From the NCBI GenBank assembly GCA_030688225.1, contig JAUYIO010000039.1:1-32707 (forward strand): DNA of 32,707 bases, read 5' to 3'. The notes under the pieces were generated by a model. It was not told the DNA's origin. It ran no database searches and worked only from the letters and a program-made list of their open reading frames with translations. Made by a program: the position numbers and the translations under genes. Source of the stretch: Nanobdellota archaeon (lineage in GTDB: Archaea > Nanobdellota > Nanobdellia > Pacearchaeales > GW2011-AR1). Positions 1,340 through 8,787 of this stretch are shown here, one piece after another (position 1 is the stretch's first letter; every line of letters starts with the position of its first letter).

Positions 1340-2230
1340 ATGGATAAACAAAAGATAATTCAGGCAGGGAGAATTGCAAAGCAAGTAAAAGAATATGCAA
1401 GAACAATTGTAAAAAAAGACACTCATTTATTAGATATTGCAGAAAAAATAGAATCCAAAATAATTGAACTCGGAGGAAAACCAGCATTTCCTGTAAATCT
1501 AAGCATAGATAATATCGCAGCCCATTACACTCCTTTTCCAGAGGACAAAACTCTTGCTCACGGACTTCTAAAAGTTGATTTTGGAGTTCACATAGACGGA
1601 TGGGTTGCAGACAATGCTTTCTCAATTGATTTGGAAAATTCAGAAGAAAATAAAAAATTAATAAGAGCATCTTCAGACGCTTTGAAAAACGCTATTGAAT
1701 TAATCAAAAAAAATAAATCAAAAACAACAACTTCTCAAATAGGGAAAATCATAGAAGAGACAATTGAATCACAAAAATTTTCCCCAATAATAAATCTTTC
1801 AGGACATTCAATGGAAGAATATGATTTGCATGCAGGAATTACAATTCCAAACATTGACGACAAAAAAGAAATTGAACTGAAAAAAGGAATTTATGCGATT
1901 GAACCTTTTGCAAGCACAGGTGTGGGGAAAGTTCACGATGGAAAACCCTCTGGAATTTACTCCCTTGTTAATGAAAAAACTCCAAGAAGTCAAACAGCGA
2001 GGGAAATTCTAGAATTTATTCAAGAAGAATATCAAACTCTCCCATTCTGCTCAAGATGGATTGTAAAAAAATTCAATTCAAGAGGACTAATTGGATTGAG
2101 ACAACTTGAAGAAAACGGAAACTTGCATAATTATCCAGAACTTGTTGAATCATCAGATGCAAAAGTTTCCCAGGCTGAAAACACAATATTAATAGACGAT
2201 AAAAATGAGGTTATTGTTACGACGGATTAA
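1340..2230 (+). CDS. map: Methionine aminopeptidase, type 2 (archaeal)
   Basis: The product MDKQKIIQAGRIAKQV...AAHYTP...VDFGVHIDGW.AD.AF...LSGH....LHAG..IPN...AIEPFAS.G.G shows the typical MetAP2 pita-bread motifs and is 296 aa long. The internal ATG at 1340 was chosen because TTTATAAT lies 19 nt upstream. The track's 1253 start adds an implausible poly-Phe leader. Confidence 0.9.
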   Translation: MDKQKIIQAGRIAKQVKEYARTIVKKDTHLLDIAEKIESKIIELGGKPAFPVNLSIDNIAAHYTPFPEDKTLAHGLLKVDFGVHIDGWVADNAFSIDLENSEENKKLIRASSDALKNAIELIKKNKSKTTTSQIGKIIEETIESQKFSPIINLSGHSMEEYDLHAGITIPNIDDKKEIELKKGIYAIEPFASTGVGKVHDGKPSGIYSLVNEKTPRSQTAREILEFIQEEYQTLPFCSRWIVKKFNSRGLIGLRQLEENGNLHNYPELVESSDAKVSQAENTILIDDKNEVIVTTD

Positions 2231-2391
2231 AATTGCTTCGTGCTAACGCACTCAGTTATAAAAATATGTTAATGTGTAAAATCCAAGATAAATGACTAAA
2301 TTCAATTTCTTCAATAAAAATTCTGTATCAATATGCGAACTTTAGTGAGTGCTATTATCAGCGAGCCTTTAGACGAGCGTCTCTCTCAAAG

Positions 2392-2616
2392 TTATCTCTC
2401 AGAATTATACTTCCCAATAATTCTCTGCAAATATTCTTTAGCAAAAGGATTTGTTAATTCAGGTAAGAGATTAGAAGCTATTCCAAGATAAAAAGGCCTT
2501 ATATGTTCCCATTCACCATTAATTTCCATTCCACACGGATTTTCTATATGTTTCCCTAAAAAAATAACAAGTTCTATATCTGTTGCTTCTGGTTTAAAGA
2601 TTTTTTCTTTAGGCAT
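2392..2616 (-). CDS. Hypothetical 74-aa protein (last gene of the five-gene operon)
   Basis: The ATG lies 2 nt after the upstream stop, with an AGGTGA SD 7 nt upstream. I recognise no motif. Confidence 0.55.
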   Translation of the reverse strand: MPKEKIFKPEATDIELVIFLGKHIENPCGMEINGEWEHIRPFYLGIASNLLPELTNPFAKEYLQRIIGKYNSER

Positions 2617-2618
2617 TT

Positions 2619-2816
2619 TTATTCACCTTCTGAACGATATTTTATTTTGCAATCTCCACAATACCCAGGACTTATTTTTTCAATATACTCGCTTACAAGA
2701 GCATGATATATTTCTGAATCAGTTTTTTTATGAAACCAAACAACAGGCTTTTCGCTAATTTTAATAGCTCCACAATCAGAGCACATTACCAATAGTTTTG
2801 ATTCTTTTGATTTCAT
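2619..2816 (-). CDS. Zn-ribbon protein (65 aa)
   Basis: There are two CxxC pairs (CSDC ... CGDC). The start overlaps the REC stop by 4 nt, with a GAGGAG SD upstream. Confidence 0.6.
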   Translation of the reverse strand: MKSKESKLLVMCSDCGAIKISEKPVVWFHKKTDSEIYHALVSEYIEKISPGYCGDCKIKYRSEGE

Positions 2817-3208
2817 TTTCCATCTCCTCTATTCAAAGCCCTCCCAACAATTTCTGAAAGTGTTGAAAATCTATAAGGTTTTTTCAAATAAGCAAAAGCC
2901 CCATCTTTAACAGCCTGCTCTCCAATCTCATTATCTCCTGCATACACTAAAATCATCGGAGCATTTATTTTCCTAGCATATTCTCTGATTAAACTAGAAC
3001 CTTGATAACCAGGCATTTCATTATCAGTAAGAACCAATTTAATTTCTGTTTCTTTTCCAACTATTTTTTCTAATCTATTTTTTAATGAATTTCCATTTTC
3101 ACAAAATTCAATATTGTAATCAGAAAAATCCATCCCAATCATATCCCCAACTAATTCTCTAGTGTCTTTCTCATCATCTGCAATTAGGATTTTTTTATCG
3201 TTTGTCAT
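2813..3208 (-). CDS. Stand-alone response-regulator receiver (CheY-like REC) domain protein
   Basis: The sequence is KKILIADDEKD...KLVLTDNEMPG...PMILVYAGD...AFAYLKKPY. It has the acidic DD pair, the phospho-acceptor D in LTD and the K-P motif. There is no output domain. Confidence 0.85.
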   Translation of the reverse strand: MTNDKKILIADDEKDTRELVGDMIGMDFSDYNIEFCENGNSLKNRLEKIVGKETEIKLVLTDNEMPGYQGSSLIREYARKINAPMILVYAGDNEIGEQAVKDGAFAYLKKPYRFSTLSEIVGRALNRGDGK

Positions 3209-3348
3209 TTCCCTTCCTCCTTATCCACAAATCTTTTTATGGAATATTCAATAATATGAGATTTGTTTCTGAACAATCCTTCACCAATTATCTTTTCTAT
3301 TTTAGCAATAAGTTCCCTGTCAATTGAAATGCTCATTTTTGTTTTCAT
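3205..3348 (-). CDS. Ribbon-helix-helix (CopG/Arc/MetJ-type) protein, 47 aa, absent from the ORF track
   Basis: Hand translation of the minus strand gives MKTKMSISIDRELIAKIEKIIGEGLFRNKSHIIEYSIKRFVDKEEGK*. This shows the beta-strand (SISID), helix, G-loop, helix pattern of RHH proteins. ATGA overlaps occur with both the upstream stop (3345-3348) and the downstream REC start (3205-3208). Confidence 0.7.
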   Translation of the reverse strand: MKTKMSISIDRELIAKIEKIIGEGLFRNKSHIIEYSIKRFVDKEEGK

Positions 3349-4100
3349 CTTCCCTTTCCCCTATAATTTTTTCTCATCTTTTTTTTATTTTCAAGACCAA
3401 ATTTTATATGAGAATCAATCTCAGCAAAATATCTCACCAAATTGTCCTTGTTAAGATATAATCCTCTTCTTGCTGAATCATCTCTATGTGAAAAAGGATC
3501 AACAGAAGAGGTTGAACCACAACTTAAATCCAACCATCTTGGATTACTAAAGTAATCTTCCCACGTAAATCCTTTAGCTTCTAAATCAGATAAAGCATCT
3601 TCGTCAGAACAGAGAGTTATAAATCCCTTGGAAGTTGTTAATCCATGACCTGCAGTATAAATCTTAGAATAATTTTCAGAGCCCAAAATTTTCCTGAATA
3701 CTTCATCAGAATTTAAACCGAAAATATCATCATTATAAAAAAAATTTATAATTCTTGGTTTTACAGAAAGATTTGCATCTTTCAAAACATTTTCCACAGT
3801 TTTTCTTGTTCTCTTTGAATTTCTTGCTGTTAATTTTGTGAAATACGGGGGATTAGAGATTTTGTTTGACAATATAAAAATTTCAAGAGTATCGTTTGGA
3901 CAATTATTATCTAAGAATTGAACAACTTCTTGAGTAAATTTTGTTGCGTCTAAGAATGTCAAAGAACTCGGCATAAGTAAAATGTGTTTTTCAGAATATT
4001 TTTTCTCATGTAGAGAGTAATGATTCACTGCGCCAGCCAAAATTCCAGCCACTGCTAAAGGCAAAACAATTCTCCCTATTTTCTTAATTAAATTTTTCAT
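3345..4100 (-). CDS. Signal-anchored (N-terminal TM) protein with a putative clan-CD (caspase/CHAT/legumain-like) His-Cys dyad
   Basis: The N-terminus is MKNLIKKIGRIVLPLAVAGILAGAV. KIYTAGHG lies 42 residues before RWLDLSCGSTS. The track start at 4106 is TTG, so the ATG at 4100 is preferred. Confidence 0.55.
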   Translation of the reverse strand: MKNLIKKIGRIVLPLAVAGILAGAVNHYSLHEKKYSEKHILLMPSSLTFLDATKFTQEVVQFLDNNCPNDTLEIFILSNKISNPPYFTKLTARNSKRTRKTVENVLKDANLSVKPRIINFFYNDDIFGLNSDEVFRKILGSENYSKIYTAGHGLTTSKGFITLCSDEDALSDLEAKGFTWEDYFSNPRWLDLSCGSTSSVDPFSHRDDSARRGLYLNKDNLVRYFAEIDSHIKFGLENKKKMRKNYRGKGR

Positions 4101-4207
4101 CTTCAAGTATTATTTTTTACTTGAAAGTAGTAAGAAATACTACTATATAAACCTTACTATTGTTGTAACTTTGAAATTAAGACACATAACCAAAACTACT
4201 TACAGAA

Positions 4208-6505
4208 TTACCCCAAATAACTATTTGCCGAAGGCAAAGCCGCTTTTGCAGACTTCAGAAAATTTTCCTCAATCTTTTTATAAACTTCAATAGTAGGTTT
4301 ATTTACACTTGGTTTTATCTTATTCAAAGCGTCTTCAAAATGTTTGAGTTTTATTTGTTTTGCATCAATAGACTCTCTCAAAGCAAGCATTGCAGCCTCT
4401 CTCGTCAAAGACTCTAAATCAGCCCCTGTATAACCTGCTGTTTTTTTCGCAATTTCCTTAAGATTAATATTTTTTGCAAGAGGCATTTTCTTTGTATGAA
4501 TTTTCAAGATATTTTCTCTTCCTTCTTGTTCCGGAGCATTCACAAGTAAAATTTTATCAAATCTTCCAGGTCTTAACAAAGCAGGATCCAACATATCTGG
4601 CCTGTTAGTAGCCCCAACAACCAACACATCACTCATATCTTCCAACCCATCCATTTCAGCAAGCATCTGATTCAAAACTCTCTCTGTAACTTTTGTTCCT
4701 GTTTCAACTCCTCTTTTACCTGCTAAAGCATCAACTTCGTCAAAGAAAACAATGCAAGGCGCAACCTGTCTTGCTCTCTCAAAAACTTTTCTCATTCCTT
4801 CTTCTGATTTTCCAACCCACATACTCAATAAAGAGGGTCCTTTAATTTGAATAAAATTTGCTTCAGATTCTTTTGCAACTGCTTTTGCTAAAAGTGTTTT
4901 TCCTGTTCCAGGTGGCCCATAAAGTAAAATTCCTTTTGAAGGCCTAATTCCCATTCTCTCAAAAATCTCAGGATGTTTCATCGGCCATTCAACAGCTTCT
5001 TTTAATTCTTGTTTGATATTATTCAATCCTCCAACATCTTCCCAATTTACATTAGGAGTTTCAACCAAAACTTCTCTCATCGCACTCGGACGAACAATTT
5101 TCAGAGCACTTGTAAAATCTTCTTGAGTAACAATCAACTTTTCCAAAATATCCTGAGGAATTTGCTCTTCTGCATCAAGCTTCATCTTCGGAAGAACTTT
5201 TCTCAAAACATTCATTGCAGCTTCCTTACTCAATGCTTCCAAATCAGCTCCCACAAAACCATGCGTAACAGAAGCTAATTCTTCAAGATTAACATCTTTC
5301 AAAGGCATCCCTCTCGTATGAATTTTCAAAATCTGTAATCTTCCAGATTTATCAGGAACACCAACTTCCAATTCTCTATCAAATCTCCCAGGACGTCTAA
5401 GCGCAGGATCAATAGCATTAACTCTATTTGTAGCTCCTATAACAATAACTTTCCCACGAGATTTCAAACCGTCCATCATTGTCAAAATCTGCGAGACAAC
5501 TCTTCTTTCAACTTCTCCTGAAACTTCTTCTCTCTTCGGTGCAATCGCATCCAATTCGTCAATAAAAATAATTGAAGGTGCAGTCTTTTCAGCCTCTTCA
5601 AATAAATCCCTAATTTTCTTTTCACTCTCTCCATAAAATTTTGACATTATTTCAGGCCCATTCAATAAAATAAAATTCGCTTCTGATTCATTTGCAACTG
5701 CTTTTGCTAAAAGTGTTTTTCCTGTTCCAGGAGGTCCATGCAATAAAACTCCTTTAGGAGGTTCAACACCAAGTTTTTCAAAAATCTCAGGATGCTTCAA
5801 AGGAATCTCAACCATCTCTCTAATTTTCTTGACTTCTTCATTCAAACCACCAATATCTTCATAAGTTATTTCAGGTATTTTCTCGTCAGAAACTTCAACA
5901 GCTTTTGGACTCAAAACAACATCTGTATTTTCTGTAATTAAAACAGGTTGATTAGGGTTAGCATTAACAACAACAAATCTTATCTGAGCAACACCTCCAC
6001 CTAAATTCCCAAATCCCATATTTCCTAAAGCTTCACCAAAAATATCTCCAAAGTCATCTCCAAATCCCATTTCTGAAAATAAATCTTTTCTTCTTTGAAC
6101 ACCACCAAGAACAACAATATCTCCTTTAACAACAGCTCTTCCCAAAAGTCCTCGTCTTAAACTTTCAGGATCTGCCTGAACCATTATCCCTTTTTGTGCA
6201 GGGGCAATCATTATTTTTTTTGCTTCTTTAATTTCTGCTTTTGAAATTGAAACCATATCCCCAATCCCTGTTCTCGCATTTCTTCTCAAAATACCGTCAA
6301 TTCTGATTATCCCTTCGCCAACATCTGCAGGATAAGCCCTGTCAGCAATTGCAACAGTCTCGTGATTTCCTTTAATCAAAATAATATCTCCTTTCTTAAT
6401 TTCCAATTCTCGCATTATCTCGGAATCCAATCTTGCAATCCCTTTATACGCATCATCTTGCAATGCTTCTGCAACACTTAACTTAATTTGTTTTTTTACC
6501 ATCAT
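4208..6505 (-). CDS. cdc48: Cdc48/VCP/VAT-type AAA+ ATPase (two AAA domains)
   Basis: The product is 765 aa. The N-domain reads ...GIARLD..M..L....GD.I.I.G. There are two [15 protein letters not shown] Walker A motifs, two DE(L/V)DA Walker B motifs and SRH regions. Confidence 0.95.
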
Positions 6506-6990
6506 TCCTTTGTTTTTTTAATCACAAATGATTTATTATTTCTTGGATTTGCAGAGTCGTAAAATTGTTTGGAGTGAAAAACAGGCTTTCCGTTCTTAAC
6601 AAATTTTACTTCTTTGGCTTTCACAATCCTAGCATTTTTATCTTCATTTCCAAAATTTAAACTTAATCTTCCAAAATCTTCAAAGCATAATCTAACCATT
6701 TCGTCCATTATTTTTGTTTGCTCGTTCATAAATGAAACAATTTCTTTAGGTATGGAAACAGCATAACTATTTCCGACTAATCGCATCTTAACGTGGAATT
6801 CTTTCTTTTTTAAGTTTACGAATTTGTTATATTCTTGCTCGTCAACAGGATGAATTATTTTTTCATTGCATTTTTGGTTAGGACATACAAGAGCCCTGAA
6901 TAGAAATCCATTTTTTGCAAGCTGAGCTTTTTTCATTTGCGTATTGCAATTCTTACACAAAATTTTGTTGTCAAATATATCGTGTGTCAT
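6502..6990 (-). CDS. Zn-ribbon plus AbrB/SpoVT-like (swapped-hairpin) domain protein, translationally coupled to cdc48
   Basis: The N-terminus is CKNC...CPNQKC. The central VGNSYAVSIPKEIV is the typical AbrB/MazE strand-loop motif. The stop overlaps the cdc48 ATG by 4 nt. Confidence 0.65.
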   Translation of the reverse strand: MTHDIFDNKILCKNCNTQMKKAQLAKNGFLFRALVCPNQKCNEKIIHPVDEQEYNKFVNLKKKEFHVKMRLVGNSYAVSIPKEIVSFMNEQTKIMDEMVRLCFEDFGRLSLNFGNEDKNARIVKAKEVKFVKNGKPVFHSKQFYDSANPRNNKSFVIKKTKE

Positions 6991-8693: not shown

Positions 8694-8787
8694 GGCTCCG
8701 TAGCTCAGCCTGGTTAGAGCACCGGACTCTTAGGAAATTAATTTCAAAGAAATCCGGGTGTCGTGGGTTCAAATCCCATCGGGGCCA
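8694..8787 (+). tRNA. tRNA-Lys (anticodon CUU at 8729-8731) with a roughly 19-nt intron at the canonical 37/38 position (about 8733-8751); CCA not encoded
   Basis: The cloverleaf was folded by hand. The acceptor stem is GGCTCCG/CGGGGCC and the D stem is GCTC/GAGC. The anticodon stem is CCGGA/TCCGG. The T arm is GTGGG-TTCAAAT-CCCAT and the discriminator is A. The intron contains the GAAATT/AATTTC self-complement. Confidence 0.85.

Follow-up and report, generated by a model that had tools for sequence, protein, structure and literature searches.

Five minus-strand genes packed between cdc48 and map on contig JAUYIO010000039.1 of a Nanobdellota archaeon (32,707 nt in full, hereafter the window) are, in the reading that we favour with moderate confidence, a lineage-specific mosaic operon built up by insertions next to a conserved receiver gene, in a slot of variable content, and not a conserved module. 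In the order of transcription they encode an exported alpha/beta protein of 251 aa (p251, 3345-4100, read from an ATG), a bare ribbon-helix-helix (RHH) protein of 47 aa (RHH47, 3205-3348), a stand-alone receiver domain (REC131, 2813-3208), a putative zinc ribbon with a CxxC...CxxC pattern (Zn65, 2619-2816) and a 74-aa member of a small-protein family (p74, 2392-2616). The slot that holds them is bounded upstream by cdc48, which encodes a double AAA+ ATPase (4208-6505, minus strand), and downstream by the convergent methionine aminopeptidase M24 gene map (1340-2230, plus strand), and both flanks are conserved. A first-pass annotation of this DNA had proposed instead that the five genes form one signalling or conflict module, linked to an exported caspase-like protease. 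That proposal fails because its genes do not co-occur elsewhere, an outcome which the annotation had itself named beforehand as refuting.

Two sets of loci were compared with the window. Orthologues of the receiver gene (REC) were found at 12 loci, namely four short contigs reached through the protein database (L002-L005), six loci from GTDB metagenome-assembled genomes whose annotation is Nanoarchaeota, Woesearchaeota or Pacearchaeota (L015-L020) and two Hainich groundwater contigs (L054 and L055). The source is a DPANN archaeon, as the annotation had supposed. Homologues of p251 were located at nine loci, eight of them with DNA: L006, L007, L008, L009 (20.8 kb, with L010-14 as its duplicates), L069 (11.7 kb) and the contig of protein P0018, which is known from its called genes only. 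The five genes were never found together in either set, nor was any pair that includes p251 or RHH47, and tblastn searches for REC, RHH, Zn65 and p74 over up to 10 kb around the p251 homologues detected none of them. The p251 homologues stand alone among housekeeping genes, and at every locus where the sequence on the downstream side can be seen (L006, L007, L009 with its short duplicate contigs, L069, the P0018 contig) the next gene is convergent; at L008, a downstream gap of 349 nt holds no convincing open reading frame (ORF). As to conservation of the neighbourhood, which had been suggested as a check, REC alone proved syntenic, and the only recurrent pairings were Zn65 with p74 in one genome (L053) and p74 beside REC in one lineage (Hainich). 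Searches of PADLOC and PHROGs with the five products returned no defence or phage family, in line with the earlier remark that the combination matches no described system; what they gave were generic matches, consisting of receiver-type PHROGs for REC131, marginal Arc-like ones for RHH47 and a single marginal PADLOC match with an E value of 0.033. A dedicated five-gene system, in which sensing or action outside the cell falls to the exported Cys-protease while the receiver and the RHH protein transduce and regulate, would fit the three ATGA overlaps and the 2-nt gap that make the cluster tighter than the norm of the window, the one promoter-like region that serves it and the invariant His and Cys residues of the p251 family. 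Nevertheless, we regard it as quite improbable in view of the loci above, of distant relatives in which REC holds the slot without the other four genes, and of searches that gave neither a defence family nor any caspase or clan CD support.

The comparison of gene order points to REC as the usual tenant of the cdc48-map slot, and probably the ancestral one. Either cdc48, map or both directly adjoin REC in 10 of the 12 loci. The arrangement cdc48 -> REC <- map, with REC alone in the slot, is present in L002, L016, L017 and L018, and REC <- map in L003, L005 and L019. In relatives without an insert, REC starts 30-80 nt past cdc48 and stops 3-40 nt from the convergent map, gaps that are too short to accommodate the other four genes. 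The cdc48 genes next to REC are 77-84% identical to that of the window, and the map genes in related loci are 57-67% identical. Together they belong to a conserved block comprising TFS, a signal-peptidase-like gene, a gene termed g162 here, cdc48, the slot and the convergent map, which is broken beyond map and extends in L018 to a phosphoesterase and a topoisomerase. In the window, the spacer between the convergent stops of p74 and map (2231-2391) measures 161 nt, and no ORF homology, RNA family or repeat was detected in it; in relatives, by comparison, REC and map are 3-40 nt apart.

The content of the slot differs from lineage to lineage. In the Hainich lineage (L015, L054 and L055), p74 lies between cdc48 and REC in a unit of 345-346 nt, which comprises one repeat copy and a p74 cassette of about 229 nt; the cassette is bounded by direct repeats of about 117 nt each, made up of the 3' end of cdc48 including its stop codon and 96-98% identical (L054 4040-4156/4386-4502; L055 5849-5965/6195-6310; L015 4565-4677/5066-5177, the last in a region that also holds a scaffold gap of Ns). 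On the basis of its sequence, this arrangement looks like the mark of an insertion event that duplicated its target. The slot of L053 is occupied by a tightly packed ZnA-p74-ZnB array without REC, and that of the window carries REC131-Zn65-p74 downstream of RHH47. In L004 (18-215) and L005 (18-272), a Cys-rich ORF with the motif C-x2-C-D-[GA]-T-G, unrelated to Zn65, ends 1 nt ahead of REC. In L020, a tandem of a cdc48 orthologue and a 48%-identical paralogue is present, with REC after the paralogue and no map downstream (1-702, 1421-3610, 3618-3959). Since the content between cdc48 and map differs in this way, we consider the region a micro-hotspot, within which Zn65 and p74 are, as far as sequence comparison can tell, a recurrent pair, and p251 with RHH47 an addition found in the source genome alone. 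It resembles integration hotspots in that conserved flanks enclose variable content and that the insert of one lineage is bounded by the cdc48 3'-end duplication. Unlike them, the islet is tiny (0.4-1.9 kb), harbours no integrase, tRNA or recognisable mobile-element gene, and has no flanking repeats in the window copy.

The same observations could be taken to mean that the slot downstream of cdc48 collects interchangeable Cdc48 cofactors, with REC as a phospho-switch adaptor, Zn65 and p74 as further adaptors and p251 and RHH47 as passengers. This idea is drawn by analogy with the bacterial single-domain regulators CpdR and RssB, which control ClpXP. REC, p74, the Zn-p74-Zn array and the Cys-rich ORF are all co-directional and directly downstream of cdc48, in different lineages, and REC even follows the cdc48 paralogue in L020. 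However, the adjacency lies inside a larger syntenic block and may be an inherited gene order, and p74 is found in 13 other loci without cdc48 nearby, some of which are bacterial-looking. We thus hold a cofactor site to be an unlikely explanation, and return to a slot with changing tenants as the preferred one.

The two small genes at the 3' end of the cluster illustrate how these tenants travel. The call of Zn65 as a putative zinc ribbon withstood comparison, as the CxxC...CxxC pattern is kept in both of its relatives. These are ZnA and ZnB of L053 (1116-1319 and 1520-1726; blastp E values 4e-9 and 3e-11), which surfaced through p74 and sit on either side of a p74 homologue in the cdc48-map slot; no library match for Zn65 was obtained, and peptide-pattern scans of metagenome and viral collections yielded no relative. 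The p74 family, on the other hand, is widespread, with 16 metagenome loci in addition to L015 and a length of about 66-84 aa. An alignment of 14 sequences revealed an invariant core made of H-I-x-N-P-C (HIDNPC) and I-R-x-F-Y, and neither Pfam nor the PDB contained a match for p74, nor did viral scans with p74 and its profile. Most copies occur in unrelated contexts, some of them bacterial-looking, with RuvC, PanD, DUF167/YggU or MsrA adjoining. From these bacterial-type neighbours, the p74 family seems to be common to bacteria resembling the candidate phyla radiation (CPR) and DPANN archaea. L056, L063, L066 and other p74 loci were observed to lie on contigs of 33-52% GC with bacterial-type neighbours.

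The five ORFs in the window are genuine genes, and all of them were read in the sequence at the coordinates of the first-pass annotation, apart from the start of the first one. There, a TTG at 4106 does give the 253-aa protein that had been described (3345-4106), whereas public gene calls take the 251-aa ATG form used here. The locus is present on Logan contig SRR13727534_43138 as well. The ATGA overlaps at 3345-3348 (p251/RHH47) and 3205-3208 (RHH47/REC131) were read directly, the 4-nt overlap of REC131 and Zn65 at 2813-2816 turned out to be a third ATGA, and the 2-nt gap at 2617-2618 separates Zn65 from p74 as reported; the purine-rich motifs ahead of the start codons are likewise present (GGAGG for REC131, GAGGAG for Zn65 and AGGTGA for p74). 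All four junctions in the cluster measure 2 nt or less, while among the 23 co-directional junctions elsewhere in the window no more than 5 measure 10 nt or less. The junctions are therefore shorter than the local norm and the operon-like packing is real, albeit in a compact genome where 4-nt overlaps are frequent, as for instance between g162 and cdc48 at 6502-6505.

The sole promoter-like spacer of the cluster is the 107 nt ahead of p251. It contains the TATA-like box TTTATATA on the minus strand at 4144-4151, found as first annotated 43 nt 5' of the p251 ATG (4100), and comparable AAGTTTAAA-type boxes are located ahead of REC and p74 in relatives, suggesting that TTTATATA is probably the promoter of the cluster. 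Very probably, then, the five genes make up one transcription unit that would start from this box. A scan with bacterial-type promoter and terminator models was uninformative, the source being archaeal. The stretch that leads from the box to the start codon contains a pair of perfect inverted repeats side by side (4102-4144, unstranded), namely AGTAGTA-N5-TACTACT at 4126-4144 and TTCAAGTA-N8-TACTTGAA at 4102-4125. In a test made post hoc, 101 of 20,000 shuffles (0.5%) of the 107-nt spacer contained a non-overlapping pair of perfect inverted repeats that were 7 bp or longer. Possibly these repeats are RHH operators, or alternatively hairpins in the 5' untranslated region. No RNA was found in the cluster by Rfam or ARAGORN.

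RHH47 would be the candidate to bind there. Its assignment as an RHH protein is plausible and at the same time marginal, since it scores 19.4 bits against PF01402, just under the cutoff of 20.5 (E value 1e-3). Matches to the NikR N-terminal, CdrS and ParD profiles (E values 0.009-0.03) and to an Arc-like PHROG (E value 0.016) are of the same order, and as these matches span all 47 residues, RHH47 is most reasonably taken for a bare ribbon-helix-helix. By its sequence, RHH47 is probably a small DNA-binding repressor. It resembles CopG/Arc/MetJ repressors and RHH antitoxins in its strand-helix-Gly-turn-helix pattern and in the inverted repeats of the adjacent promoter region. Unlike RHH antitoxins, it lacks a C-terminal toxin-binding tail, and its neighbours are a receiver gene downstream and a gene for an exported protein upstream. 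A type II toxin-antitoxin pair of RHH47 with a neighbour was considered and discarded, as there is no toxin partner or toxin-family match and no antitoxin tail. One might also suspect that RHH47 is a chance ORF and the count of five genes an artefact, given that it is a singleton without a homologue in any fetched locus and that its Pfam score stays below the cutoff. Yet four independent RHH-type profiles align over its full length, it fills the space between p251 and REC131 exactly with an ATGA at both ends, and the other three small or uncharacterised genes all have homologues, which leaves the chance ORF a very improbable explanation.

The export of p251, as proposed in the first place, was confirmed at the level of prediction by a hydrophobic N-terminal segment (signal or anchor, residues 2-27) that precedes the alpha/beta domain. 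Basic and hydrophobic N-termini are likewise predicted in 10 of 11 family members, and some of them carry lipobox or twin-arginine features (RRRTFLAG...LAGC in P0014 and ...LQGC in P0015), from which we conclude that the family is probably extracytoplasmic. An exhaustive phmmer search identified nine true homologues (E values 6e-23 to 5e-4), and a profile search added a tenth, P0021. The 2679-aa repetitive protein P0012, with 20 matched stretches, was rejected as spurious. A word-indexed homology search returned the query itself as the only match, and no match to p251 was obtained in the genome contigs, in viral contigs, or in Pfam, NCBIfam, PADLOC, PHROG and the sequences of the PDB. Literature searches returned nothing specific on a His/Cys family of this type. 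As judged from these searches, the family of p251 is archaeal, rare and previously uncatalogued, and has no Pfam model. The alignment shows the residues H152-G153, D191, C194-G-S-T197, D201, S204, D219, R223 and K239 to be invariant, with His152 encoded at 3645-3647 and Cys194 at 3519-3521.

We were curious to know whether the caspase-like fold that had been assigned to this protein would be recovered, and the profile searches together with the AlphaFold and Foldseek comparisons that had been recommended were run. With an input alignment of 10 sequences, AlphaFold2 produced a p251 model with a pLDDT of 81 and a pTM of 0.79, compared with a pLDDT of 39 from the single sequence. The model displays an N-terminal helix followed by an alpha/beta domain, in which His152 comes after the strand 146-149 and Cys194 after the strand 189-191. 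In all 10 sequences, H152-G153 and C194 are invariant, and their order is His(-Gly) first and Cys second, each behind a hydrophobic strand. Like clan CD peptidases (caspases, metacaspases, legumain, gingipain), p251 thus has a His-Gly followed about 42 residues on by a Cys in an alpha/beta domain, and the family motifs xTxGHGxT and DxSCGST are, as we would assume, reminiscent of the SGHG and DSCHSG of metacaspases. Unlike them, it possesses one extra beta-alpha unit ahead of the His strand. The top 50 Foldseek matches of the model in the PDB included no peptidase and were generic, partial Rossmann-like similarities (USP-like, GT-B) with TMq values of at most 0.35, and the matches in BFVD were of the same generic kind alone. 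Profiles for Peptidase_C14, C13, C25, C11, C80 and others from Pfam and NCBIfam gave no match at E<=1 for p251 or at E<=0.1 for nine homologues, and searches of PDB sequences with the single sequence and with the profile produced nothing meaningful. An hhalign comparison of the family profile with caspase-3, whose sequence had been verified against PDB entries, returned a probability of 0.07%. The caspase-like fold and clan CD membership were accordingly set aside as unsupported. Because the profile, fold and hhalign tests were all negative, what underlies the caspase-like label is the order of the His and Cys motifs. What the evidence supports is a new family of exported and enzyme-like His/Cys proteins, a description that is drawn from alignment and prediction.

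A further clue to p251 came from its relatives. In P0017, P0018 and P0019, the p251-type domain directly follows an RHS-associated core (TIGR03696, 67-75 bits at a cutoff of 32.5). The TIGR03696 scan confirmed the core in these three proteins, and the N-terminal region of P0021, with a similar signal peptide and length, looks alike by eye. These secreted RHS-core-only proteins (P0017-P0019 and P0021; L069 4925-6370 and L007 55-1245) are 382-481 aa long and consist of a signal peptide, a few repeats, the RHS-associated core and the His/Cys cargo domain. Their contigs carry archaeal neighbours, such as Rpr2, RpoN, an archaeal ribosomal-protein order, deoxyhypusine synthase and an ATP-dependent ligase. 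Since minimal RHS-core proteins carry the family as their C-terminal cargo, p251 is likely to be an extracellular hydrolase or effector.

Polymorphic toxins of the RHS/YD type canonically carry the toxin domain C-terminal to the RHS core (Zhang et al., 2012, PMC3482391), and P0017-P0019 resemble them in this respect as well as in their signal peptides. The cluster could therefore be viewed as a polymorphic-toxin-like cassette, with p251 as the toxin domain and RHH47, or else Zn65 or p74, as immunity protein or antitoxin. The DPxG end of the RHS-associated core immediately before the p251-type domain and the small gene translationally coupled right downstream of p251 both argue in this direction. 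Several observations do not fit. No co-directional downstream partner, and hence no adjacent immunity gene, is seen at any homologue locus with a visible flank, and the downstream gene in the window encodes a bare cytoplasmic DNA-binding fold without a toxin-binding extension, while p251 is exported. p251 itself has a signal or anchor and no RHS repeats, the RHS-fused relatives are minimal and devoid of long repeat shells, and p74 and Zn65 both occur without a p251 homologue. Besides, the p251-type domain matched none of the Tox/Ntox families in Pfam. A toxin cassette is thus not a likely account of these genes. As no immunity gene adjoins the domain at the RHS-fused loci seen, it can be argued that the p251-type activity is not dangerous to its producer, and its target would perhaps be extracellular or absent from the producing cell.

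The conserved element of the cluster, REC131, is securely identified. The receiver assignment was upheld by PF00072, which scores 50.8 bits over residues 7-121 (cutoff 30.2), and receiver domains in the PDB matched with E values down to 1e-14. Orthologues are 44-52% identical, and the acidic pair D11/D12, the phospho-acceptor D62 (TDNEMPG; codon 3023-3025) and K110-P111 are invariant in six of them. REC131 is therein like the CheY/CpdR/DivK-type single-domain regulators, with a full receiver, the acidic pair, the acceptor Asp, the Lys-Pro and no output domain. In contrast to these, the REC subfamily has an invariant Tyr-Gly apparently at the usual switch Thr/Ser site, within the stretch LVY89-G/A-G91 (LVYGG); an ungapped alignment puts the Tyr at the Thr/Ser position, and HMMER puts a 2-residue gap there. 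A further difference lies in the fixation of the gene beside cdc48 in Woesearchaeota-like archaea. The earlier statement that no kinase is in sight also held, as no HisKA or HATPase_c domain was detected among the scanned proteins of the window, a scan that took in the cluster and the non-shadow ORFs of at least 90 aa and left aside cdc48 and map, which had been identified by homology, and outside ORFs shorter than 90 aa. Literature searches returned nothing specific on a link between REC and Cdc48.

Taken together, we surmise that REC was the ancestral occupant of the slot, that p251 and RHH47 would have been added upstream of it and the recurrent Zn65 and p74 pair downstream, and that genome compaction may then have fused starts and stops into the ATGA overlaps. 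The cluster would now be expressed as a single polycistronic transcript with translational coupling, and RHH47 would most likely repress its own promoter at the two inverted repeats. Since REC131 no longer has the separate upstream spacer that its relatives keep, its expression presumably depends on the cluster promoter or on read-through from cdc48, and it would retain whatever role it has beside cdc48 in related archaea. p251 is predicted to be exported and would probably act outside the cell as a hydrolase or effector with a putative Cys/His(/Asp) site, whereas Zn65 and p74 are pictured as small proteins that travel together or alone.

Several points weigh against this scenario. Neither insertion scars nor duplicated gene ends nor repeats were found around the cluster in the window. 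No same-genus relative has been sampled, and clustering at 90% identity leaves all five proteins as singletons, so the set could be conserved over a short evolutionary distance. The compared genomes are all distant, with 77-84% identity in cdc48 and 44-52% in REC, for which reason the direction of change, insertion or deletion, is one that we infer; moreover, many of the related contigs are short. The coupling at four junctions goes beyond chance and could reflect selected stoichiometric co-expression, and hence a shared function. Finally, three independent arrangements place p74 next to REC or Zn65 in this slot, a hint of some functional tie among the small genes. A bolder reading would make p251 an exported RHS-cargo-type His/Cys effector of this episymbiotic-type archaeon, in a young, lineage-specific control circuit with its own RHH repressor, the cdc48-linked receiver and Zn65 and p74 as cofactors, in a slot that serves as a cassette site for partners of Cdc48 and the receiver; we rate it as rather improbable.

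These results matter in several respects. The rejection of a five-gene system spares follow-up on a false module. In DPANN-type genomes, the p251-type domain appears as cargo of RHS-core proteins of minimal size, with no immunity gene at the visible loci. Classical polymorphic toxins have been reported as generally absent from most archaea (PMC3482391), and RHS-type toxins as rare among them; a secreted effector domain that is new could therefore be relevant to the way in which host-dependent archaea deal with hosts or competitors. An orphan receiver is fixed beside cdc48 across Woesearchaeota-like lineages, apparently without a nearby kinase. The clearly delimited micro-hotspot between two housekeeping genes, with one insertion bounded by a 117-nt target duplication, would show how operons are assembled de novo in streamlined genomes.

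Elsewhere in the window, housekeeping genes were recognised, encoding TFS, topoisomerase I, a RadA-like protein, eRF1, a class I aminoacyl-tRNA synthetase, eIF2-beta, RPA, MCM, TBP and DNA ligase. The gene g162 (6502-6990, minus strand), which overlaps the start of cdc48 by an ATGA, encodes a protein of 162 aa that starts with a zinc ribbon and further contains an AbrB/SpoVT-like segment, with a marginal match to MazE_antitoxin. It recurs directly upstream of cdc48 at about 70% identity in L015-L018, L054 and L055, and g162-cdc48 may be a conserved operon. In L017 (2243-7420), the cdc48 orthologue is a single ORF of 1725 aa with two inserts of about 1.4 kb in its AAA domains, which are probably inteins. 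Outside the cluster, at 8694-8787 on the plus strand, Rfam recognises a tRNA of 94 nt with 58 bits where ARAGORN reports none, and this is probably an intron-containing archaeal tRNA.

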